Assembly: GCA_963665095.1 (NCBI GenBank) | Contig: OY762069.1 | Coordinates: forward strand, 6,720,001 to 6,784,000 | DNA from: an uncultured Desulfobacter sp. | GTDB taxonomy: Bacteria > Desulfobacterota > Desulfobacteria > Desulfobacterales > Desulfobacteraceae | Direction of reading: 5' to 3' | Length of the DNA: 64,000 nucleotides | In this document: positions 9,323-34,608 of the stretch, piece after piece | Layout of the letters: every line of letters starts with the position of its first letter | Numbering within the stretch: the first letter of the stretch is position 1 | Position numbers and translations under genes: made by a program | Notes under the pieces: generated by a model | Seen by the model: only the letters and a program-made list of their open reading frames with translations | The model's database searches: none | Told to the model about the DNA's origin: nothing

Positions 9323-9793
9323 TTGGACCAGATCGATAAAAAAATTTTAAAGATCCTCCAGGAAAACGGGAAAATCACCAATGCCAAGTTGTCCCGTATG
9401 GTGGGTATTTCTGCGCCCGCCACCCTGGAGCGGGTCAAGCGGCTGGAAACAAGTGGCGTCATTTCCCATTTTACCGCCGTGGTGGACCCTGAAAAGGTGG
9501 GATTTACCATCATGGCCATTGTCAGCATCTCTTTAAGTTTAAGCAAGCTGAGCTCAATCCCCGAAATTAAAGCGAAATTTGCAGAGCTTGAAGAGGTGGT
9601 GGAGTGCTACCAGATTGCCGGTGCCCATGATTTTATTCTGAAGGTCATTGCCGAAGATATCAAATCCTATGCACAGTTTATGAACCACAAATTGACCAAA
9701 ATCCAGGGTATCCAGAGTATCCAGTCCTCCTTTGTCATTGACAGCCTTAAGGATAAGAAGATTCTGTTTCTGGATCCGGAGGATGGCGCCTGA
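9323..9793 (+). CDS. Lrp/AsnC family transcriptional regulator
   Basis: D.IDKKIL..LQ.NG.I....L...VG.S......RVKRLE..GVI HTH; ECY.IAG..DF RAM domain. Confidence 0.92.
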   Translation: MDQIDKKILKILQENGKITNAKLSRMVGISAPATLERVKRLETSGVISHFTAVVDPEKVGFTIMAIVSISLSLSKLSSIPEIKAKFAELEEVVECYQIAGAHDFILKVIAEDIKSYAQFMNHKLTKIQGIQSIQSSFVIDSLKDKKILFLDPEDGA

Positions 9794-9865: not shown

Positions 9866-11146
9866 TTAGACCCGCTGCTGTACCAGGCGGATCTTAACCT
9901 TAATACCGCTCTGCTCTGTCACAGTTTCTTCAGCCCAGGCTATCAACTGTTGCAGATTTTTGATCTCATCTGAAAAAAGAAGGTCATTCATGATCAGGGA
10001 TATCAGGAGCATGTCGGTGCCGGCCTGGCAGGAACGCTCCATGGTGCAGCTGATGGAGGGCAGTTTCAGGGCGGATTTCAGATTTTTCCTGACTTGGGCC
10101 TGGGAGACCCGGATGCCTGAAATGATCATGTAATTATCTGTACGTTCCGTCAGCCACTGAATGCGGGTAAAAGCAGACCCGCAGGGGCAGGGTTCGGTCT
10201 CAATTTTTGCCATGTCACCGGTGCGGAACCGGATCAGGGGAAACGCCCTTGCCGACAGGGTGGTAAGGACCAGCTCTCCCTTTTCGCCCGCGGGCATGGG
10301 GCGGCCTGTTTCAGGGTCAATGATTTCAGACAGGATATGGTCGTCGTTAATATGCAGCCCGTTGTGGCACCGGCACTCATGGGCAATGGCCGGGCCCGGT
10401 ATCTCGCTTAGACCGTAGTTGAGCCAGACATCCACATGGAGCCGTTCCTGCAGTTCGGATACGGTATGCCCGTCATCGGGTTCTCCCACCAGGATCATCT
10501 GTTTCAGGTTCAGTTCATTGGGATGGGATTCCTGAGCGAACATGTGCTCGGTCAGATGCCGGGCAAAGGCAGGCGTGGTCACCAGCACCGTTACCTTATA
10601 GTCCCGCAGCACCATCAGGGTCTTGGCCACGGACAGGGGCGAGTTGGGAATTACACCTGCGCCCAAGGCCTCTCCGCCGTCCTTGTAATCCCTGGCCCAG
10701 TTGGCAAGGCCCGGGGGCAGGTGAACCAGAATGATGTCCCGGTCCAGGACACCTGCTGCCATATACGCCCGTGCAATCAGTTTTTTCCAGATTACAAGGT
10801 CTGCTGTGGTGTACCCGCTGATGGAGGGACTGGCACCTGAGCCGGGGGCCGTGTGGATGCGCACGATGTCCCTGAGCGGCACGGCAAACAATCCGTAGGG
10901 GTAGTGGGTGGCAAGATCTGTTCTGTCCATGAAGGGTAAGTTGGCAAGATCTTCGAGCCCTGTAATGTCGGCAAGTCCCGTCTCCCGGATGCGGTTGCAG
11001 TGGAAGGGCACATTTTTGCACGCCCGGTTCAAGGTGGTCTGCAGCCGTTCAAGCTGCAGCTGTTTTAAATCACTTGAATCTTGATCACTGGAATTGTGAC
11101 CGCTGAAGTTTGTTTCCCCTGCTGGTTTATTCTGTTCGGACATCAT
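9866..11146 (-). CDS. Phenylacetate-CoA ligase (PaaK)-like protein with degenerate catalytic motifs
   Basis: YPYGLFAVPL..IVRIH, NYGLSE, GELVLTTL...AFPLIRFRTGD; the P-loop reads TAPGSGAS rather than ASSGTTGK. Confidence 0.8.
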   Translation of the reverse strand: MMSEQNKPAGETNFSGHNSSDQDSSDLKQLQLERLQTTLNRACKNVPFHCNRIRETGLADITGLEDLANLPFMDRTDLATHYPYGLFAVPLRDIVRIHTAPGSGASPSISGYTTADLVIWKKLIARAYMAAGVLDRDIILVHLPPGLANWARDYKDGGEALGAGVIPNSPLSVAKTLMVLRDYKVTVLVTTPAFARHLTEHMFAQESHPNELNLKQMILVGEPDDGHTVSELQERLHVDVWLNYGLSEIPGPAIAHECRCHNGLHINDDHILSEIIDPETGRPMPAGEKGELVLTTLSARAFPLIRFRTGDMAKIETEPCPCGSAFTRIQWLTERTDNYMIISGIRVSQAQVRKNLKSALKLPSISCTMERSCQAGTDMLLISLIMNDLLFSDEIKNLQQLIAWAEETVTEQSGIKVKIRLVQQRV

Positions 11147-11895
11147 TGATTCCTTTCGTCCAAAAAGTCTCCGTAGTCTTTGCCCAGATAGGCCCGCTTC
11201 ACATCATCATCCACCAAAAGCTCATCCGCACTGCCCTGAAGCACCATCTTTCCTGTTTCCAGCACATAGCCCCGGTCGGAAATTTTTAAAGCGGCCCGGG
11301 CATTCTGTTCGACTAAAAGAATGGTCACCCCGCTCTTTGACAATTCCTGGATGGTTGCAAAGATCATCTCCACAATTTTAGGCGCCAGGCCCATGGAGGG
11401 TTCGTCCAGCACCAGGAGGGCAGGGCGTGCCATGAGTGCTCTGCCAATGGCCAGCATCTGCTGCTCCCCGCCGGAAAGTGTTCCTGCCAGCTGATCTTTG
11501 CGCTCCTGTAAAATGGGAAACATTGTAAAAATTTTATCAAGGTCTGCCTGCACCTGACCTGCAACCCCTTTGCGGTACCGGGTATAGGCCCCCATTTTAA
11601 GGTTGTCCATGACGCTTAAAGGGGAAAAGATCTGCCGGCCTTCGGGCACCATGCTGATGCCTTCCCGGACAATGGCCGGCGCAGACATCCCCTTAAGGGT
11701 ATTCCCTTTAAACTCAATCTCTCCGGACCAGTTTTTCAAAAGGCCGCACACTGCAGACAACAGGGTGCTTTTCCCAGCCCCGTTGGCCCCGATAATGGAG
11801 ATCAGCTCCCCCTGCCTCACCGAAAGACTCACGGTGTGGACCACGGCAATATTTCCGTAACAGCATCTTAAATTCTTAATTTTCAGCATGCGCAA
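11143..11895 (-). CDS. livF: HAAT/Liv-family ABC transporter ATP-binding subunit (LivF-like)
   Basis: GANGAGKST, VPEGRQIF, LSGGEQQM, LDEPSMGLAP. Confidence 0.9.
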   Translation of the reverse strand: MRMLKIKNLRCCYGNIAVVHTVSLSVRQGELISIIGANGAGKSTLLSAVCGLLKNWSGEIEFKGNTLKGMSAPAIVREGISMVPEGRQIFSPLSVMDNLKMGAYTRYRKGVAGQVQADLDKIFTMFPILQERKDQLAGTLSGGEQQMLAIGRALMARPALLVLDEPSMGLAPKIVEMIFATIQELSKSGVTILLVEQNARAALKISDRGYVLETGKMVLQGSADELLVDDDVKRAYLGKDYGDFLDERNQ

Positions 11896-11898
11896 TTT

Positions 11899-12693
11899 TC
11901 ATCCATTACCAAGATAGGCTGACATCACCGCCTCATTGGTTTGTATTTCTCTGGGCGTTCCTTCGGCCAGTTTCCGTCCCTGGTCCAGAACCACTACCTT
12001 GTCGGACATGCCCATCACCAGACTCATGTCATGTTCCACCAGCATCATGGTGATGCCGGCCTGTTTGATTTTTTGAATCAGTTGACCCAGCGTCTGGGTT
12101 TCCACCGGGTTCAAACCGGCAGCCGGCTCATCCAGCAGCAGCAGCAACGGGTCTGACGCCAGGGCCCGGGCGATCTGGGCGGTTTTCTGGCGGCCCACAG
12201 GCAGGTCGCCTGCCATTTTGTGGGCATCGTCTGCAAGACCTGTGAACTCAAGCAGTTCTTCGGCTCTTTGCCTTGTCTGCTTCTCTTCTTTTTTCATGGC
12301 CGGAATCCTTGTGACCGCCGCCCAGAAACCTGTCCTGGTGCGCACATGCATGCCCACCATGATATTTTCAAGAAGGGTCATGGAGGAAAAGAGTTCCACA
12401 TGCTGGAAGGTTCTTGCCACCCCTGCTTTCACAAGCGTGTGCACCGGTGTTTTTCTGATATCCCTGCCATTGAAGACCACCTTGCCGGCATCGGGCCGGT
12501 AGATACCGGTGATCATATTGAAAAGGGTGGTTTTGCCCGCGCCGTTGGGTCCGATCAGCCCGCATACAATCCCGGTTTCAATGGAAAAGCTGATCTGGTC
12601 CTGGGCTGTGACCCCGCCGAACATTTTGGTCAGATTGCGGACATCAAGGATCTGCTTGGCCTGGATATGAGGGGCTCTTTGTGACAGTATCAT
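11899..12693 (-). CDS. livG: HAAT/Liv-family ABC transporter ATP-binding subunit (LivG-like)
   Basis: GPNGAGKTT, ARTFQ, LLDEPAAGLN, VEHDM, AYLG. Confidence 0.9.
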   Translation of the reverse strand: MILSQRAPHIQAKQILDVRNLTKMFGGVTAQDQISFSIETGIVCGLIGPNGAGKTTLFNMITGIYRPDAGKVVFNGRDIRKTPVHTLVKAGVARTFQHVELFSSMTLLENIMVGMHVRTRTGFWAAVTRIPAMKKEEKQTRQRAEELLEFTGLADDAHKMAGDLPVGRQKTAQIARALASDPLLLLLDEPAAGLNPVETQTLGQLIQKIKQAGITMMLVEHDMSLVMGMSDKVVVLDQGRKLAEGTPREIQTNEAVMSAYLGNG

Positions 12694-13646
12694 GCCCTGG
12701 CCCTCCGCGCTGTCCGGACCATATCCATAATGCCCCGGGTCAACCCCTGGGGCATGAAGATCATGACAACCATTAAAATCAATCCGAAAATGATCATCTC
12801 ATATTCGGCAAACCCGTGGAGTACCTCGGGCAGAAGCGTTAAAACTGCTGCCCCAAGAAGCGCCCCCCAGACACTTGCCATACCACCGATGACCACCATG
12901 GTGACCATCTTGATGGAGACCATGAACCCGAAGGATTCGGGACTGATGAACAGCACAAAGTGGGCGTACAAAAAACCTGCAATGGCGCCCAGGGCCGCTG
13001 AAAACATAAATATCTCAAGTTTGAGAAAGTGGGTGTTGATGCCGATGGCAACAGCGGCTTTTTCTCCGTCATGGATGGCCCGAAGGGCACGACCCGTGCG
13101 GGAGGCCAGAAGCCTTCTGCAGATGATCATGGCCGCAAACACAATACCCCAGACAAGGAAGAAGTAGCTTGCCCCGGACATGAAGACGAGCGACCCTGCC
13201 TCAAGTACGGGTATCCCCACAAATCCCGATGCCCCGCCGGTCACATCCGCCCACTCCCGGATGGCAATGGTGACAATCATGCCGAATCCAAGGGTGCCCA
13301 TCCCCAAGTAGTAGCCGGAAAGCCGCAGGGTGGGCAACCCCACAATAAAGGCAATGAGTACGGCCGCTCCCACCGCACACCCGAGTGCGATCCAGGGGTT
13401 GATGGCGTAGGTACCTGACAGGATGGCCGTAGTATAGGCCCCGATGCCGTAAAAGGCGGCATGGCCTAAAGAGACCTGCCCGGTGTACCCCATGAGCATG
13501 TTAAGTCCCAAGGCCAGAAGGGTGTTGATCCCGATAAAGGTCATGATCTGCAGGTAGTAGGTGTTTTCTGTCACCAGGCCAAAGATCAGTACCGCACAAA
13601 GAAAAACAATGTATTCAATCCAGATGGTTTTATTTTTATCCGTCAT
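12690..13646 (-). CDS. livM: HAAT/Liv-family ABC transporter permease (LivM-like)
   Basis: GYTGQVSLGHAAFYGIGAY, LRLSGYY, GRALRAI; multiple TM segments. Confidence 0.9.
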   Translation of the reverse strand: MTDKNKTIWIEYIVFLCAVLIFGLVTENTYYLQIMTFIGINTLLALGLNMLMGYTGQVSLGHAAFYGIGAYTTAILSGTYAINPWIALGCAVGAAVLIAFIVGLPTLRLSGYYLGMGTLGFGMIVTIAIREWADVTGGASGFVGIPVLEAGSLVFMSGASYFFLVWGIVFAAMIICRRLLASRTGRALRAIHDGEKAAVAIGINTHFLKLEIFMFSAALGAIAGFLYAHFVLFISPESFGFMVSIKMVTMVVIGGMASVWGALLGAAVLTLLPEVLHGFAEYEMIIFGLILMVVMIFMPQGLTRGIMDMVRTARRARA

Positions 13647-13649
13647 AAT

Positions 13650-14525
13650 CTAAAACCGCTTGGCCTCTTTGGCCGCAAACAGTCCGCCCGGCCGGATGTA
13701 AAGGATCAGAAGGAGAAGTACAAAGGCAATGGCATCTTTGAGGCCCGAAGAGATAAGCCCTGCGCCCAGCGATTCAAGAATGCCCAGCAAAAGCCCCCCG
13801 GCAAAGGCGCCCCACAGACTGCCAAGCCCCCCGATCATGGCGGCACAGAAGCCTTTAATGCCCAGCATCGTGCCCATGTCATAGGAACTCATGGTAATGG
13901 GAGCTATGAAAACGCCGGCCACAGCGCCGCAGCCGGCAGATATGCCAAAGGCCAGAATCCCCATCTTTTCCGAGGGGATGCCGGAGAGCCAGGCCGCCTT
14001 TTTGTTCACGGCGCAGGCTACCATGGCCTTGCCGGTAAGGGTCTGCTTCAGGAACAGATGGATGCCGCCGGCCAGCACCAGGGCCGCTGCCACGATCCAG
14101 ATGCTCTGGGGCAGCAGGGCCGCCCCCAGAATTTCTATGGACTCATGGCTGGAAAAGGAGGGCATGCTGAAGGGGTCTTTTCCCCAGGCAATCATGGCCG
14201 CCCCTTTCAGGAAAATACTTGCCCCCACTGTAATAATGATCAGGGTGATGGGTTCCGGGTTCCTGGCTGTTCGGATGGCTAAGCGTTCAAACACCAGTCC
14301 GAGCAGACATCCTATTGCCACAGCCCCTGCCATTGCCAGGGGCAGGGGGATGCCTAAACGCACCCACAGGGTCACCATGGCCAAGGCCCCGATCATGACA
14401 AATTCCCCGTGGGCAAAGTTGATCAGCTCCGTGGAGCTGTACAGCATGGACAGCCCCACGGCGATGACGGCATACACAGCGCCTGTGGTAATACCTGAGA
14501 ACAGATATTGGACAATTTCCTGCAT
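13650..14525 (-). CDS. livH: HAAT/Liv-family ABC transporter permease (LivH-like)
   Basis: INFAHGEF.MIGA, IGGLGS..GA..GG, RP.GLF. Confidence 0.9.
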   Translation of the reverse strand: MQEIVQYLFSGITTGAVYAVIAVGLSMLYSSTELINFAHGEFVMIGALAMVTLWVRLGIPLPLAMAGAVAIGCLLGLVFERLAIRTARNPEPITLIIITVGASIFLKGAAMIAWGKDPFSMPSFSSHESIEILGAALLPQSIWIVAAALVLAGGIHLFLKQTLTGKAMVACAVNKKAAWLSGIPSEKMGILAFGISAGCGAVAGVFIAPITMSSYDMGTMLGIKGFCAAMIGGLGSLWGAFAGGLLLGILESLGAGLISSGLKDAIAFVLLLLILYIRPGGLFAAKEAKRF

Positions 14526-14547: not shown

Positions 14548-15693
14548 CTATTTTAAGAGTGTCCAGGTACCGTTTTTAATTTCCACCATAACAAAGGCGT
14601 CAGGTGACAGACCGTTATGATCCTGGGGGGTGAAATTGAATTCCCCGGTGGCTCCCACGTAGCCTTTGGTGGCTTCCAGATTGTCGCGGATTTTTTGCTG
14701 GTCCCCGCCACTGCCTTTTAAGGCACCGACCAGAAGGTTCACGGCATCATAGGCATACCCGCCGAATCCTGACACATTTCCGGAAAATTTATTCTGATAA
14801 TCTTTTTGATAATCTTCAAGTATTTTTTTCTGAGGGTCTGAATTATCCAGCAGACTTGTCACAAGAATTTTACCCGTGGGGAGCATGTTGCCATTGGCCG
14901 CGTCCCCGGCCAGTTCAATGAACTTGGGCGATCCCACTCCGTGGCTCTGGTACAGGGGAATATCGATTTTAAGCTGTTTTGCATTTTTTGCCACCACCGC
15001 AGGCCCGGGGTTGGTGCCCCAGCAGACAATGGCGTCCGGGCCGGCTGCCTTGATTTTGGCCAGCTGTGCCGTGGTGTCGGTGTCTTTGGCCCCAAAGCTC
15101 TCTTTTAAGATTACCTCAATGCCGAAGTGTGATGCCTGGTCCAGCAACTGCTTTTTCCCGCTTTCGCCGTATGCGTTGGATACCGTGAGGATGCCAACCT
15201 TTTTAATCCCGGCAGCTTTCATCTGTCCGTACACGGCGGCAACGGCCAGAAGATCGCTCTGGGCGGTTTTAAATACATAAGGATCCACCGGGGTGGTGAT
15301 CTTGATACCGGCAGCACAGCTGATCAGAGGCACCTTGGCCCGTTTGGTGAAGTTGACAATGGCAAGGGTGGTGGGCGTGGTGGACGGCCCGATAATGGCA
15401 ATGACCTTATCCTTGTGGATCAGCTTGTTGACGGCAGATACCGCCTTGGCAGGGTCCCCTTCGGAATCGTAAATCACTGCCTCAAGCATATGGCCGTCAA
15501 TGCCGCCTTTTGCATTGATCTGCTCAACCATCATCTCCATGGTTTTCTTTTCAGGGTCTCCGAGAAACGAGGCCCTTCCGGTAACGGAGAAAATCCCTCC
15601 GATCTTGTAAACGGATGCAGCCATGGCGCCTGAGGCCATCAATATTGACAGGACAGCGGCAAGTAATGCAAGGGCAAGGTGTTTTGATTTCAT
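14548..15693 (-). CDS. HAAT/Liv-family ABC transporter substrate-binding protein
   Basis: Signal peptide MKSKHLALALLAAV...AMA; KIG...S.TG..S.LG, IN..GGI.G, YAYDAV; GAGGAG RBS before ATG 15693. Confidence 0.9.
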   Translation of the reverse strand: MKSKHLALALLAAVLSILMASGAMAASVYKIGGIFSVTGRASFLGDPEKKTMEMMVEQINAKGGIDGHMLEAVIYDSEGDPAKAVSAVNKLIHKDKVIAIIGPSTTPTTLAIVNFTKRAKVPLISCAAGIKITTPVDPYVFKTAQSDLLAVAAVYGQMKAAGIKKVGILTVSNAYGESGKKQLLDQASHFGIEVILKESFGAKDTDTTAQLAKIKAAGPDAIVCWGTNPGPAVVAKNAKQLKIDIPLYQSHGVGSPKFIELAGDAANGNMLPTGKILVTSLLDNSDPQKKILEDYQKDYQNKFSGNVSGFGGYAYDAVNLLVGALKGSGGDQQKIRDNLEATKGYVGATGEFNFTPQDHNGLSPDAFVMVEIKNGTWTLLK

Positions 15694-15735
15694 TGTTTTT
15701 CTCCTCTTAGTAATGGTGGTTGTTAAAATTTTTGT

Positions 15736-15785
15736 AAAAAAAAACCATGGACTTTTTTCGGTTTTTGCCGGCCTGCCCATGGTTT
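15736..15785 (-). terminator. Attenuator terminator hairpin in the 5' leader of the ABC operon
   Basis: Minus strand AAACCATGGGC...GTCCATGGTTT stem ending in a 9-T run, about 42 nt before the binding-protein start codon. Confidence 0.8.
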
Positions 15786-15811
15786 ATAATCCTTTTTATG
15801 TCTTGAATGCG

Positions 15812-15898
15812 TTACATCAAGGCTCCCCGGGCAGGCGGTCTAAAAAAGACACGGCTGCTAAATATAAAACTAAAAAAGTTACAATAGCGCTTGATCAT
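15812..15898 (-). CDS. Phe-rich attenuator leader peptide MIKRYCNFFSFIFSSRVFFRPPARGALM
   Basis: ATG preceded by AAGGA; 6 of 28 codons are Phe (all TTT); contains GCCTGCCC, which is complementary to GGGCAGGC overlapping the terminator 5' arm. Confidence 0.75.
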   Translation of the reverse strand: MIKRYCNFFSFIFSSRVFFRPPARGALM

Positions 15899-15937
15899 GG
15901 GTGTTTCCTTGTATTGTCATCACTGATATTCGCTACA

Positions 15938-15966
15938 TACCTAATCAAGCGGGCCGCTTGTGTCAA
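15938..15966 (-). promoter_or_regulatory. Putative sigma70 promoter with a palindrome in its spacer
   Basis: TTGACA-17 nt-TAGGTA on the minus strand; the spacer holds the perfect inverted repeat CAAGCGG-G-CCGCTTG (15946-15960). The -10 element is imperfect. Confidence 0.5.
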
Positions 15967-16234
15967 GCCTTTTTAACCGGCCAGTTTTTAAGGCGATCTT
16001 CATTTAATCGGCGTAGGATTTAAAACACCTGTCTTTATTTTGTCCCAGGATCGGATTCGCACGAATTATTAGTAGAAGCAGGAGATATGCCTAAGATAAA
16101 AAAATGCATGCTGTCTGTTTTTTGAGCCGGATCCAATGGTAAGGTCAGTTGCTCTGACTCTCATTATTGACAACACTGAAAGCAAATGCCAATAAAAGAA
16201 CTTAATTTAATGTTTACAATACCAGGAGGCTTGA

Positions 16235-16821: not shown

Positions 16822-18070
16822 TCATTCACTTATAAAATCCGGCAGCTTGCCTTGAAACAATAAGCGTAACGCTTCGGTTGCTCTCATTCCATGCTTTTTG
16901 CACGTTGAGATGTAACTACGGATACGACAGAAAATTGCAGCTCCCTCCGTTGAGCGAAAACAGCCGGATATTTTCTGGTGAACTTTTGTCATCCTGATAT
17001 CATTTTCGCCCCGATTATTGGTAAACGGCACTTGTTGTTCATCCATAAAGCGAAGGGTCTCCGTTTCATAATCCATTAATCTTTCCAGAAGATTTCTTGC
17101 TTTGGATCGTTTAGTTCGGCCACGTTTATTTGGTTTCTTGCTTTCATCCGGTGGTGGGCATTCGCTTTGGGCCTTGTCCAGCAGGTCCCGGTATCTTTGT
17201 CGATATTCCCGGGAGTCTGCCGGCTCCAGTCGTCCTCCGGCATCATCTACCGCCTGATTGATCTGCAATAGAAGATCTCTCATGTCCCTGGCCCATGCTT
17301 GTTTGTCCTGTTCCCAGGCTCGTTCCAGTTCTCTGAGGTGGTGGGCATTGCACAGGGCATGTTGGCAGTCTAATCTGAAATATGGTTTCCAGTGGTCATG
17401 GCAAAGGACACCTTTGAAATGAGGCAACACCCCCATTTCTTCCATAGCTTCAAGCCCTCTTTTGGAATGGGGAAGATAGTAACTGTACAACTGATTGGAT
17501 ACACATTGATGCCGGTCTCATCGGCATGGCAAAGCCCGGATTCGATCAATTTGGATTTGACTATCGCCTCAAAGGCTTCCAGCTTATGATAGGCGTCATA
17601 GTTGAAGTTGAAAACGGTTCCTGCACTTATCGGAACCTTGACCTGATCCTGGAAGTCCTCTTCAATCCGTTTATACGGCACCAATTGGTACTGTGACATA
17701 TAGACTGAATGGACTTTTACATTAAGGCCATATTGCACCGGGCGGTTGATCCCCTCAGGGAATGGAGCTGTGAACCTTTTCCCATTGGCATCTTGAAGAA
17801 TTTGAGCCCTGTATTCGGTTACTATTCGTGAAATATCAATGTCGACAACCTGTCTGGATTCATAGCCAGCATCTTTGTACTCCCCTACTGGCAGAGTTTT
17901 TTTGTCCAAGGGGATATCTTCAATAAAATCCGGGGAATCAAATTGTTGCAGAGTAGTGCCAGTAACAGCTCTATTGCGCTTTTCAAAGCAGGGGAGACAC
18001 CAGCATCATTTTCCAGCAGTTTTTTGGTATTCTCTATTGTAGCCTCAACGTCTATTGACTCTATCTTCAT
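16822..18070 (-). pseudogene. IS66-family transposase, frameshifted and internally deleted
   Basis: Fragments MKIESIDVEATI..., YESRQVVDI...HADETG, HDHWKPY...HALCNAHHLREL, VPFTNNRGENDIRMTKVHQKISGCFRS lie in different frames. Confidence 0.85.
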
Positions 18071-18455: not shown

Positions 18456-18932
18456 CTATCTGGTATAACCCTTCAGGGGAATATGCCTGCTAATGGCACC
18501 GCGTTCAGGAATATCGGCAACGATCTTTTTAAATTCCGTTTCGCTTTTGGTCCACCAGATACTCTGAGTGGGGGCAGTATACGCACCGTTTTCAATGCTC
18601 TGAACGCTTGCGGGGACAATCAGTCGGGTGCCCAGAATTCCAGCGTAGTAAATCAACCTTTTTTCCGGCTCCATGGGAAGGACATTGTCAATTGCCTTTT
18701 TAATGGCTAAAAGATCTTCTGTGGTCCCGGCAGACTCCATGGCAGCAGCCAGGATACGCATGGCGCAATAGTTGAGTATATTTTCGGAAGTGGCAACCGG
18801 TTGATTGTATTCCTTTGTATATCTGGCAACAAATTTATCCATGATCGGTCTGGGGCCGATATCCCGCACCCGGGCAACGCCCATGACACCGTTGAGCTTG
18901 TTCAGATCGCCATTGAAATCGAAAAAGAACAA
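18456..18932 (-). pseudogene. C-terminal fragment of a Liv-type ABC substrate-binding protein
   Basis: KFVARYTKEYNQ.....NYCAMRILAAAMESAGTTED...IKKAI resembles the C-lobe of periplasmic binding proteins; no signal peptide or N-lobe. Confidence 0.55.
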
Positions 18933-22037: not shown

Positions 22038-23399
22038 ATGACAACGAACAGCAAAATCACGCAATCTGGATGGACAAAATCAGGATGGAAAAATTATACA
22101 GCCCTTCAGCAGCCCAACTGGCCGGATCTTAAAGAGTTGGAAAAAGTCAGTCAAGATCTGGCCCTGCTGCCGCCGCTGGTGTTTGCCGGAGAAATACGAA
22201 CGTTAAAAGAGTTGCTGGCCAAAGCCTCAAAAGGGGAAGCGTTTCTGCTCCAGGGAGGGGACTGTTCAGAGGATTTTTCTGAAGTCACAGCGCCCACCAT
22301 CAGGGAAACCATGAAGGTGCTGCTGCAGATGGCCGTTGTCATGACCTATGCCGGTGGGAAACCTGCCATTAAAGTGGGCCGGATTGCAGGACAGTTTGCC
22401 AAGCCCCGTTCGTCGGATACGGAAACTGTGGATGGTGTTGAACTGCCGTCCTATCGTGGGGACATGGTAAACAAAAGCGAACCCACCATGAGTGCCCGTA
22501 CACCCAATCCCAAATATATGCTCAAAGGGTATTATATGGCCGCTGCCACCCTGAATCTTTTGCGGGCATTTACCCGGGGCGGTTACGCAGCCCTTCACCG
22601 GGTTCAGGCCTGGAACCAGGAGTTTGTGGCGCAATCCCCCATGGGTCGGTCCTACGACCGCCTGGCCAAACAGATTGACCAGGCCATCCGGTTCATGAAC
22701 ACCATCGGGATTCCCACAGATATTCCCCAGGTCAATCAGACCCAGATTTTCACCTCCCACGAAGCCCTGTTGCTGCCCTATGAAGAGGCCTTGACCCGGG
22801 TGGATTCCACCACCGGAGACTGGTATGACTGTTCCGCCCACATGCTCTGGATCGGAGAGCGGACCCGGCAGGTGGACGGGGCCCATGTGGCGTTTTTAAA
22901 AGGGGTGCTCAATCCCATTGGGGTCAAGATCGGTCCGGATCACGATATCGACAATATCAAACAGCTCATTGAAATACTCAATCCTGAAAACGAGCCCGGA
23001 AGACTGACCCTGATCACCCGGATGGGCTGTGATCATATTGAAAACAGACTGCCTCCTCTGCTCAGGGAGATCAAAAAAACAGGGGCTCATGTGGTGTGGA
23101 ACTGCGACCCCATGCATGCCAATACCTATACATCGGATTCCGGTCACAAGACCCGGGATTTTAATAATATTTTAATGGAGATCACCCGGTTCTTTGAGAT
23201 TCACTGGGCGGAAGGCACGATCCCTGGCGGTGTTCATCTTGAAATGACTGGCAAAAATGTCACCGAATGTGTGGGTGGCGCCAGAAACATTGTCAGTGAA
23301 GAGCTTCACAGCCGGTATGATACCACCTGTGACCCCCGGCTTAACGCGGAGCAGAGCCTTGAGGTGGCATTCCAGATCGCTGACATGATCAGGCGTTAA
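22038..23399 (+). CDS. Class II 3-deoxy-7-phosphoheptulonate (DAHP) synthase
   Basis: FLLQGGDCSE, KVGRIAGQFAKPRS, SHEALLL.YE, WIGERTRQ, CDPMH, CDPRLN. Confidence 0.95.
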   Translation: MTTNSKITQSGWTKSGWKNYTALQQPNWPDLKELEKVSQDLALLPPLVFAGEIRTLKELLAKASKGEAFLLQGGDCSEDFSEVTAPTIRETMKVLLQMAVVMTYAGGKPAIKVGRIAGQFAKPRSSDTETVDGVELPSYRGDMVNKSEPTMSARTPNPKYMLKGYYMAAATLNLLRAFTRGGYAALHRVQAWNQEFVAQSPMGRSYDRLAKQIDQAIRFMNTIGIPTDIPQVNQTQIFTSHEALLLPYEEALTRVDSTTGDWYDCSAHMLWIGERTRQVDGAHVAFLKGVLNPIGVKIGPDHDIDNIKQLIEILNPENEPGRLTLITRMGCDHIENRLPPLLREIKKTGAHVVWNCDPMHANTYTSDSGHKTRDFNNILMEITRFFEIHWAEGTIPGGVHLEMTGKNVTECVGGARNIVSEELHSRYDTTCDPRLNAEQSLEVAFQIADMIRR

Positions 23400-32857: not shown

Positions 32858-33286
32858 TTAAAGGTTGGAGATCTCTTTTTTATCAATCACCTTGATGCCT
32901 TTTTCAGTCAGGAGGCTTTTCGCTTTTTCAATATCGTCAAAGCGGAAGATCATGATGGCGTTCTGACACTGTGGGTTGGCAAAGGCATACATATACTCCA
33001 CGTTGACATTCTGATCACTCAAAGGATCAAGCACCTGGTTCAGGCCGCCGGGCACATCGTTGACCTCAACGGCCAGAACCCGTGTTTTGCCTACGGTAAA
33101 ACCCTGGTCTTTCAGTGCGGCGGTTGCTTTATCATTATCATTGACAATGAGCCGGAGCACACCAAAGTCAGTGGTGTCTGCCAGGGACAGTGCCCGGATA
33201 TTAACGCCTGCATCCCGCAGGATGGCCGTGACTTCAGCCAGCCGGCCTTCTTTGTTTTCAATGAATATGGATATCTGTTCAGCCAT
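32858..33286 (-). CDS. Tandem ACT-domain protein
   Basis: QISIFIENKEGRL...NIRALSLADT.DFGVLRLIV, D.PGGL, NVEYMYAF. Confidence 0.9.
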   Translation of the reverse strand: MAEQISIFIENKEGRLAEVTAILRDAGVNIRALSLADTTDFGVLRLIVNDNDKATAALKDQGFTVGKTRVLAVEVNDVPGGLNQVLDPLSDQNVNVEYMYAFANPQCQNAIMIFRFDDIEKAKSLLTEKGIKVIDKKEISNL

Positions 33287-33303
33287 TATTATTCTCCTTA
33301 AAA

Positions 33304-34608
33304 TTACATTTTACGGTTATCAATAACCCTGACAGCCTTGCCCTGGCTTCTTTCAATGGTTTTAGGCTCCACAAGGGCCACCTTGGCAGATACGCCAAGA
33401 AGCTCCTTGATGTTATGGGAGATCTTTCCTTCCATGGCCTGCAGCCCCTTGATGTCATCCCTGAATGAGGTGTCGTCGATCTCTACCTTCACAGTCAGAG
33501 TATCCAGGTTGTCCACCCGGTCCACCACCAGCTGGTAATGGGGTGCCACTTCGCGGCTCTCCATGAGGACACTTTCAATCTGTGAGGGGAAGACGTTAAC
33601 ACCGCGAATGATGAGCATGTCATCGGTACGGCCGGTGGGTTTGTTCATGCGGATGTGGGTCCTGCCGCAGGTACAGGGCACTGGATTCAGGGAGGTAATG
33701 TCCTTGGTCCGGTAACGGATGACCGGAAAAGCCTCCTTGGTGAGGGAGGTAAATACCAGCTCTCCTGAATCACCGTAGGGGACCGGTTCCAGTGTGTCAG
33801 GATGCACCACCTCAACAATAAAATGATCTTCGGCCACATGAAGCCCTTTTTGTTCTTCATAACACTCGACAGATACGCCGGGTCCCATCACCTCGGAGAG
33901 GCCGTAAATGTCCACCGCCTTGAGGTTGAGCTTGGCTTCCAGCTCCTGGCGCATCCGCTCGGTCCAGGGCTCTGCTCCGAAAATGCCGGATTTAAAGGAG
34001 AGGTCTTTGAAATCCACACCCATTTCCTCAGCCACTTCAGCCAAGTGGAGAATGTAGGAGGGGGTGCCGCACAAAATGGTGGGCTTGAAATCCTGCATAA
34101 TGGTGATCTGGCGCTTGGTATTGCCGCCGGAAACAGGAATGACGGATGCACCCAGGCGCTCCGCCCCGTAATGCGCCCCAAGACCGCCTGTGAAAAGACC
34201 GTATCCCCAGGCATTGTGAATGATGTCACCCCGGGTGGCACCGGCTGCGGACATGCTTCTGGCCATGAGATCCGCCCAGGTACTGATGTCCCGTTTTGTA
34301 TAACCCACCACAGTGGGTTTGCCGGTGGTACCTGAAGAGGCATGAATCCGGATCACCTGCTCCATGGGCACGGCAAACATCCTGTACGGGTAGTTGTCTC
34401 TAAGGTCCTGTTTGGTGGTAAACGGCAGGCGCCTTAAGTCATCCAGACTTTTTATGTCAGTGGGTTTGATCCCTGCCTTGTCATATGTCTCTTTGTAAAA
34501 TGGAACCGTGGCATAGATTCGTTCAATGGTGGTTTGAAGACGGCGAAGCTGAATCGCCTCCAGCCCCTCCCGGGGCATGGTCTCATAATCAATGTCGTAA
34601 ATGGGCAT
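33304..34608 (-). CDS. paaK: Phenylacetate-CoA ligase
   Basis: [57 protein letters not shown]. Confidence 0.93.

Follow-up and report, generated by a model that had tools for sequence, protein, structure and literature searches.

A predicted phenylalanine-sensing leader attenuator upstream of a Liv-type importer and PaaK-like operon in Desulfobacter

The livKHMGF-paaK* operon of an uncultured Desulfobacter sp. is preceded by a short leader which, judged from its sequence and from modeled folding, we interpret as a ribosome-mediated transcription attenuator that functions in this genome and would allow the operon to be read when charged tRNA-Phe is scarce; we put the probability of this interpretation at about 85%. 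The leader is new as a family and as a target, and its mechanism is textbook. Throughout, the window denotes the whole 64,000-nucleotide stretch of DNA that was analyzed.

Under the proposed mechanism, RNA polymerase would start near 15930 and pause after hairpin I:II, and a ribosome would load on the leader ORF. With ample Phe, the ribosome would pass codon 19 and cover segment II, segment III would pair with IV, and transcription would end at the U9 tract (15744-15736). With scarce Phe, the ribosome would stall on the Phe codons and cover segment I, leaving II free to capture III, so that no terminator forms and the operon is read.

Leader Architecture in the Window

The minus-strand ORF at 15898-15812 encodes MIKRYCNFFSFIFSSRVFFRPPARGALM*, with six Phe codons (all TTT) and one Tyr; a sequence-only reading of this DNA had described this 28-codon ORF together with its AAGGA ribosome binding site (RBS), and all of these elements were re-found. 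The ORF has a T content of 38%, and at least six Phe codons arose by chance in 167 of 27189 open-frame shuffles (0.6%). Small Phe-rich ORFs are common genome-wide, with at least five Phe in 133 of 5063 intergenic RBS-bearing ORFs; requiring in addition a terminator and a gene no more than 500 nt away leaves only two entries of a strict list (5+ Phe, 18%+), the liv leader and the aroF leader. The promoter-like layout upstream (TTGACA-N17-TAGGT) also occurs in relatives, including those with a deleted leader, where it adjoins the livK RBS region; the site at 15938..15966 was not called by a consensus promoter scan. Positions 15600-16100 are covered with zero differing letters by DNA contigs of sequencing runs X1, X4, and X5, any of which may be the source of the window DNA. 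The sequencing-run contigs also contain other related organisms. Further upstream of the leader (16822-17909 and 18456-18932, both minus strand), the window has reading frames that look like a transposase split in two, along with part of another periplasmic binding protein.

The RNA can adopt two mutually exclusive structures, antiterminator and terminator, that have one arm (segment III) in common. The proposed 8-nt complementarity between GCCTGCCC (15836-15829) and GGGCAGGC (15778-15771) was verified and grows to a helix of 11/12 pairs, with a duplex energy of -22.5 kcal/mol. The terminator hairpin AAACCATGGGC/GTCCATGGTTT, likewise proposed from the letters alone, has a folding energy of -17.6 kcal/mol (the 71-nt piece has z -2.92) and ends in T9 at 15744-15736, 42 nt 5' of the livK ATG (15693). 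It has an AU-rich base and an atypically long loop of 19 nt, because of which a simple terminator scan missed it. Hairpin I:II, which the sequence-only reading overlooked, contains the last Phe codons in its loop; by an energy criterion alone, a similar hairpin folds at ≤ -5 kcal/mol in 29 of 30 aligned leaders (described below).

Folding the two alternative structures, the check that had been suggested, showed that both form in the model depending on ribosome position: with the ribosome footprint masked, II:III forms 10.5 bp in the stalled state and III:IV forms 8.6 bp with the ribosome at the stop codon. In the model, the switch from antiterminator to terminator occurs between F19 and R20. 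Without translation, the window RNA at equilibrium prefers II:III to the terminator, unlike most orthologs, and this preference would speak against a tight off state without ribosomes. Sequestration of the livK RBS was considered and rejected: the RBS (15706-15700) begins 30 nt downstream of the U tract and belongs to none of the four segments.

Table 1. Positions of the leader elements and associated genes in the window.
Feature	Position	Strand	Basis
Promoter-like TTGACA-N17-TAGGTA (-35 15966-15961, -10 15943-15938)	15938..15966	-	inferred from sequence
RBS AAGGA of leader ORF	15906..15910	-	sequence, 5' of ATG
Leader ORF, 28 codons, Phe codons 8, 9, 11, 13, 18, 19	15812..15898	-	ORF listing; frame, Phe content, stop position kept in orthologs
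Segment I, 5' arm of predicted pause/protector hairpin I:II (with 15841-15831, -11.9 kcal/mol)	15847..15858	-	folding
Last two Phe codons F18, F19; F19 begins 8 nt 5' of segment II	15842..15847	-	invariant in 30/30 aligned and 19/19 further leaders
Segment II, antiterminator 5' arm within ORF	15825..15836	-	II:III covariation
Segment III, common to antiterminator II:III and terminator III:IV	15771..15785	-	covariation, folding
Segment IV (15752-15742, terminator 3' arm) and U9 tract (15744-15736)	15736..15752	-	folding, covariation
livK-type solute-binding protein, 381 aa	14548..15693	-	homology; nearest solved relatives CouP/RPA1789-type aromatic-acid binders
livH, livM, livG, livF homologues (HAAT ABC permeases and ATPases)	11143..14525	-	homology
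paaK*, PaaK-like, without SSGTTG loop and C-terminal GK.RV motif	9866..11146	-	motif and profile comparison
Canonical paaK (34608-33304) and ACT gene (33286-32858), split from liv operon	32858..34608	-	no leader upstream

Conservation and Covariation of the Leader

To place the leader in its genomic context, we compared 40 order-level loci picked from the best of 158 matching genomes. The usual gene order is (mutS, amiA) ech, paaK, ACT, livKHMGF, paaK*, with paaK directly upstream in the same cluster in 30 of the 40. Leader segments III and IV are present in 27 of these loci, 22 times before paaK and 5 times before livK, and also in L018-L024 and L026; the 13 order-level loci without a leader include all four of one genus in the window's own family. 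The canonical paaK of the window's genus, which in the window forms a pair with the ACT gene 17 kb from the liv operon, carries a leader in 0 of 23 loci (2 incomplete loci left out). This distribution suggests that the leader stood before paaK in an ancestral paaK-ACT-livKHMGF-paaK* operon and came to stand before livK where paaK moved.

An alignment of 30 intact leaders (A2) was assembled from the window, L018-L024, L026, and 21 order-level loci; near-duplicates (L032, L067, L088, L093), loci with segment II missing or unassigned (L065, L073, L078), and decayed copies were set aside. The shuffles used as controls ignore kinship, and related genomes are not independent; with that limit, the pairing of II:III amounts to 95.3% (22 both-side changes; 0/500 shuffles; 32-43% in slid controls) and that of III:IV to 95.9% (15 both-side changes; 0/500 shuffles). 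The window itself holds one compensatory pair, C-G where 28 of the 30 leaders have U-A. With the reading frame fixed by segment II and not by Phe content, Phe is more frequent in frame than in both other frames in 29 of the 30 leaders, with a tie in one, and Phe is encoded by 163 TTT and 45 TTC codons. The ortholog alignment proposed as a check thus revealed a conserved Phe-rich upstream ORF with TTT/TTC exchange, and covariation of both helices with compensatory changes.

The geometry of the leader is equally constrained. All 30 leaders have a Phe codon starting at -8 nt relative to segment II, 23 have one at -14, and 20 have one at -11, and the stop codon ends 25 nt after the start of segment II in 23/30. 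Among 19 further leaders at the head of paaK, retrieved with a sequence model built from A2, the last aromatic codon is at -8 in all 19, a start codon is present in 17, and II:III reaches 11 or more of 12 pairs in 14. In equilibrium folding models with an 8-nt footprint, a value picked after seeing the spacing, 24 of the 30 leaders are open with the ribosome at the last Phe, against 2 of the 30 with it one codon later, and in 6 the terminator stays unopened at the last Phe; footprints of 10-14 nt move the flip 1-2 codons upstream, which keeps it within the conserved run of Phe at -14 and -11. The sequence-only reading had proposed stalling at the early Phe codons, which agrees with the window model insofar as the terminator opens whichever of the six Phe codons the ribosome stalls on, but the best-conserved control codons are those of the last Phe run. 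In L062, L079, and L121, the leader stop lies directly before segment II and the peptide has 18 codons, with an unchanged RNA cascade.

Most orthologs carry a second layer of structure. An extra hairpin V:VI (≤ -9 kcal/mol) followed by a U tract is found in 26 of the 30 aligned leaders, and in most orthologs III:IV would also sequester IV from V, allowing this second, GC-rich terminator to form. There is nearly no U tract after IV in 5 of the 30 leaders, so V:VI must be the terminator there; III:IV has its own U tract (a run of 5+) in 13 of 30 orthologs, and two terminators may therefore act in tandem. Complementarity between IV and V amounts to 92.3% paired positions, and the stalled-state model forms a mean of 6.4 bp in 28 leaders; IV:V covariation in the 30 aligned leaders is not above shuffles (193/500). 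Segments V and VI are absent from the window, where the match of model R1 is confined to positions 4-172 of 231. The window's leader thus appears to be a reduced four-segment form that would rely on III:IV and U9.

Related Leaders and Their Codon Content

The same RNA architecture is found before other genes of aromatic metabolism. Model R1 finds matches in 131 of the 151 genomes at class level (E 0.001) and in 51 of the 151 at phylum level (E 1e-6). Behind 20 secondary class matches are 15 ADH synthase genes (assigned by N-terminus; the 2 of them that were scanned both score above the TIGR01949 cut-off), 1 aroF, 1 DAHP synthase-prephenate dehydratase fusion, and 3 paaK, while the 15 genes scanned behind 20 phylum matches comprise 10 DAHP synthases, 1 ADH-synthase-type aldolase, 2 Liv-type binding proteins (L205, L209), and 2 without assignment. 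Many genomes of the order have a Phe/Tyr/Trp leader before the ADH synthase of the archaeal-type chorismate route (L127-L143; for example L135:1-1187, plus strand). At L206 (G475:C51:14073-14218, minus strand), the same RNA cassette, with a frame lacking an aromatic run, precedes a 388-aa gene without assignment, and in G513 another copy of the cassette follows the DAHP synthase leader at a distance of 1.4 kb.

Three paralogous leaders occur in the window's own genome. The first precedes pheA in pheA-aroE-aroA-aroK (G000:C1:1399369-1399220, minus strand) and is a four-segment Phe/Tyr leader with the common II/III core; another, before an aroF-type DAHP synthase (G000:C1:5694471-5694610, plus strand), is a four-segment Phe/Tyr/Trp leader with a terminator of -20.7 kcal/mol; and a six-segment, Phe-only leader with 10 Phe in 20 codons precedes a 623-aa DAHP synthase-prephenate dehydratase fusion (G000:C1:1978348-1978545, plus strand), a protein that is itself unusual. 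The window also encodes a class II DAHP synthase 6 kb upstream (22038-23399, plus strand), which with two class I enzymes brings the genome to at least three DAHP synthases; no leader was seen in the window upstream of this gene (22038).

Codon content differs with the gene behind the leader. In the 20 codons before segment II, paaK/liv leaders hold F206 Y47 W2 (n=30) and F120 Y31 W2 (n=19), against F65 Y71 W13 in the common-pathway leaders of ADH synthase and aroF (n=15, one near-duplicate dropped), 12 of which contain Trp; the liv leader therefore groups with Phe-specific genes. The paralogous leaders precede genes that supply the sensed amino acids, namely pheA, DAHP synthases, and ADH synthase; for the liv operon, the substrate is one that we infer.

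Leader Decay in the Closest Relatives

In a livK-livH DNA tree, the window's genome is sister to 16 close relatives (100/100), and in all 16 of these closest relatives examined the start, the pairing, or the whole leader has been lost. The entire leader between promoter and RBS is deleted in 3; 1 has lost the ORF and kept the terminator; 11 have lost the ATG, several of them also the frame; and 1 keeps an ATG frame that has 5 Tyr against 3 Phe and lacks the Phe at -8. This Tyr-shifted, ATG-bearing copy nests among ATG-less genomes in the livK-livH tree. In 13 terminator-bearing decayed copies, the II:III duplex has -3.4 to -13.4 kcal/mol, compared with -17.9 to -22.7 in 9 intact leaders, and all 12 decayed copies modeled never open. 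Alternative starts in the decayed relatives (TTG/ATT and short upstream ATG frames, inspected by eye) were discarded, being not conserved, without an RBS or out of frame, and with weak II:III.

Breakage or deletion of the leader in all 16 points to weak selection on it in this clade. Of 25 genomes of the genus, 24 have an intact pheA leader, 15 of the 16 close relatives among them, and the loss is therefore specific to the importer.

The Operon and Its Probable Substrate

The product of paaK* lacks both the SSGTTG loop and the GK.RV motif, each present in 0 of 23 paaK* and 30 of 30 canonical paaK copies, and with 245.6 bits against a cut-off of 646.3 it fails the phenylacetate-CoA ligase PaaK model TIGR02155. 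From these sequence features, it is predicted to be catalytically inactive. Without an adenylation loop and catalytic Lys motif in 23/23 copies, paaK* (9866-11146) is a candidate pseudo-enzyme attached to the importer. A gene for an Lrp/AsnC regulator (9323-9793, plus strand) converges on the end of the operon.

Among solved chains, those of the CouP/RPA1789 group are closest to the binding protein (E 1e-41 to 1e-38), with Leu/Ile/Val binders behind them; the accessible parts of two CouP papers report that CouP binds aromatic acids (PMC3610893, PMC3223731). Taking the site residues as named in the available text of PMC3610893 (Arg197, Ser222, and Thr102 for the carboxylate; His309 and Gln305 for the 4-OH), the alignment, with an inferred numbering offset, has Thr102 kept, Ser222 changed to Thr, and Arg197, Gln305, and His309 replaced. 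On balance, we lean toward an operon that imports a non-hydroxylated aryl acid, for example phenylacetate or phenylpyruvate, as a Phe precursor. Such an acid would be turned into Phe by PaaK together with an Ior enzyme operating in the carboxylating direction; a Methanococcus aryl-acid pathway is reportedly treated in one paper. No ior gene was found in the window's cluster or in the annotated order-level loci. Conversion of phenylacetate to Phe is described for rumen anaerobes and cultures (PMC7356843, accessible part). Phenylacetate catabolism in Desulfococcus multivorans has been assigned to other clusters, with a TRAP system and FadD4 (PMC5109826, as far as its available text goes), and this assignment may leave room for an anabolic role of the paaK/liv cluster.

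Alternative Explanations

The same attenuator could precede an importer of Phe itself or of several aromatic amino acids, with paaK and paaK* as neighbors in a separate role. By default, the substrates of HAAT/Liv systems are amino acids; in this genus livK has retained the leader, which paaK-ACT has lost (0/23 paaK loci), CouP Arg197 is not kept in the binding protein, and related leaders precede other Liv-type binding proteins (L205, L209). We nevertheless regard amino-acid import as unlikely, given that the nearest solved relatives of the binding protein are CouP/RPA1789 (E 1e-41 to 1e-38) and not the Leu/Ile/Val binders, that CouP binds aromatic acids according to the accessible text of PMC3610893 and PMC3223731, and that in 30 of the 40 order-level loci paaK is the immediate upstream neighbor within the cluster.

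A different concern is whether the leader still regulates at all, since it might be a relic in early decay, as in the sister genomes, with operon expression fixed. Its loss in 16 of the 16 closest relatives examined, the missing V:VI, and the equilibrium preference of the untranslated RNA for read-through all agree with such a relic. Yet over a branch of 0.1 changes per site, the window keeps the ATG, RBS, frame, stop position, and -8 Phe; its II:III duplex is in the strongest class (-22.5 vs. -3.4 to -13.4 kcal/mol in 13 decayed copies) and includes a both-side change; and the pheA and aroF leaders of the same genome are also four-segment by layout, all of which makes a relic quite improbable. 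Still harder to credit is control of the RNA by a protein or a metabolite (T-box, riboswitch), or a simple terminator, with the Phe codons as a by-product of U-rich loops. The ORF is indeed 38% T and all six Phe codons are TTT, and the sequence-only reading had itself cautioned that TTT codons could be chance in a T-rich region. This caveat is countered by the frame-specific Phe excess, the use of TTC, the covariation, and the conserved start and stop, and T-richness leaves unexplained the Tyr/Trp codons specific to common-pathway leaders; because codon content tracks the target gene and the leader is conserved, Phe sensing is not a T-rich accident. T-box matches were absent from the window in Rfam at E up to 10, and Rfam gave only chance-level matches in the window and none at gathering level in 12 loci, including Phe_leader and other leader families. 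Attenuation by a translating ribosome that senses Phe is thus the explanation that we retain for this genome.

Implications

With a leader of this kind, a cluster that is very common in anaerobes and poorly understood acquires a function that can be tested. If Phe shortage switches an operon on, that operon ought to provide Phe, which speaks against the catabolic role usually attached to "phenylacetate-CoA ligase." The leaders form a cis-regulatory family outside Rfam, in which codon content reads out the role of the gene behind the leader. The invariant 8-nt spacing of the last Phe, together with the natural series of intact, locked, and deleted copies, offers simple tests of ribosome-footprint geometry and attenuator evolution. 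To this the window adds a reduced four-segment form, transfer of the leader to livK, and the decay series.

At slightly less than even odds, we also propose a wider scheme, in which an undescribed phylum-wide family of aromatic leader attenuators consists of one reusable RNA cassette re-tuned by codon swaps (Phe only, Phe/Tyr, Phe/Tyr/Trp). The family would identify the orphan paaK-ACT-liv-paaK* cluster of sulfate reducers as an anabolic pathway that salvages phenylacetate to make phenylalanine, with a pseudo-enzyme subunit, and one genus would record the steps from six segments to four, to a locked constitutive terminator, and finally to deletion.

Comparison with Known Systems

The sequence-only reading had recognized the layout of ribosome-mediated attenuators of the pheL/pheM/trpL type, and leader ORF, I:II, II:III, and III:IV with a U tract are all present. 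We take I:II, II:III, and III:IV of the window to correspond to 1:2, 2:3, and 3:4 of the classical attenuator. The likeness to E. coli pheL-pheA, pheM-pheST, and trpL lies in a short ORF with cognate codons, a pause/protector hairpin, an antiterminator, and a U-tract terminator (PMC9291695, PMC3082878, accessible parts). Unlike these E. coli leaders, the window leader would control an ABC importer/CoA-ligase operon and not a biosynthetic enzyme or tRNA synthetase, and its terminator loop is large (19 nt). None of four leader peptides matched NCBIfam. A genome-wide attenuator survey of 2010 is said to have included deltaproteobacteria.

The earlier statement that no such attenuator is described in this lineage holds in part. 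In its accessible text, PMC3082878 gives Desulfobacterium autotrophicum as a potential user of pheL upstream of pheA; that Phe-rich leader is presumably of the same lineage, and the pheA leader of the window's genome has the common II/III core. The same text looked only upstream of pheA and has nothing on paaK, liv, DAHP synthase, or ADH synthase leaders. PMC11109978 screened a Desulfobacteraceae genome and, in its available part, gives 8 uORF candidates, 2 of them described in the main text. The available portions of PMC5109826, PMC10102598, PMC13759103, and PMC4833913 (with supplements) contain nothing on a paaK/liv leader. Our literature search found no description of a transporter or paaK/liv leader; subscription papers were mostly beyond its reach, and an earlier account is possible.

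The his operon leader of Salmonella and E. coli has six segments. The orthologs resemble it, as 26 of the 30 aligned leaders have the extra V:VI with a U tract and conserved IV:V complementarity, in a six-segment cascade; unlike the his leader (layout in the accessible part of PMC10065794), the window has no V and VI, and in orthologs III:IV often has its own U tract. The best score to Rfam His_leader, on a paralogue, is 29.5 bits against a cut-off of 49. For the operon, the closest parallel is the CouPSTU importer of Rhodopseudomonas palustris (RPA1789), likewise a HAAT importer linked to a CoA ligase and including the nearest solved relatives of the binding protein. CouP, however, serves catabolism and is substrate-induced through CouR (PMC3610893, available text), whereas the operon described here would be controlled by amino-acid shortage.
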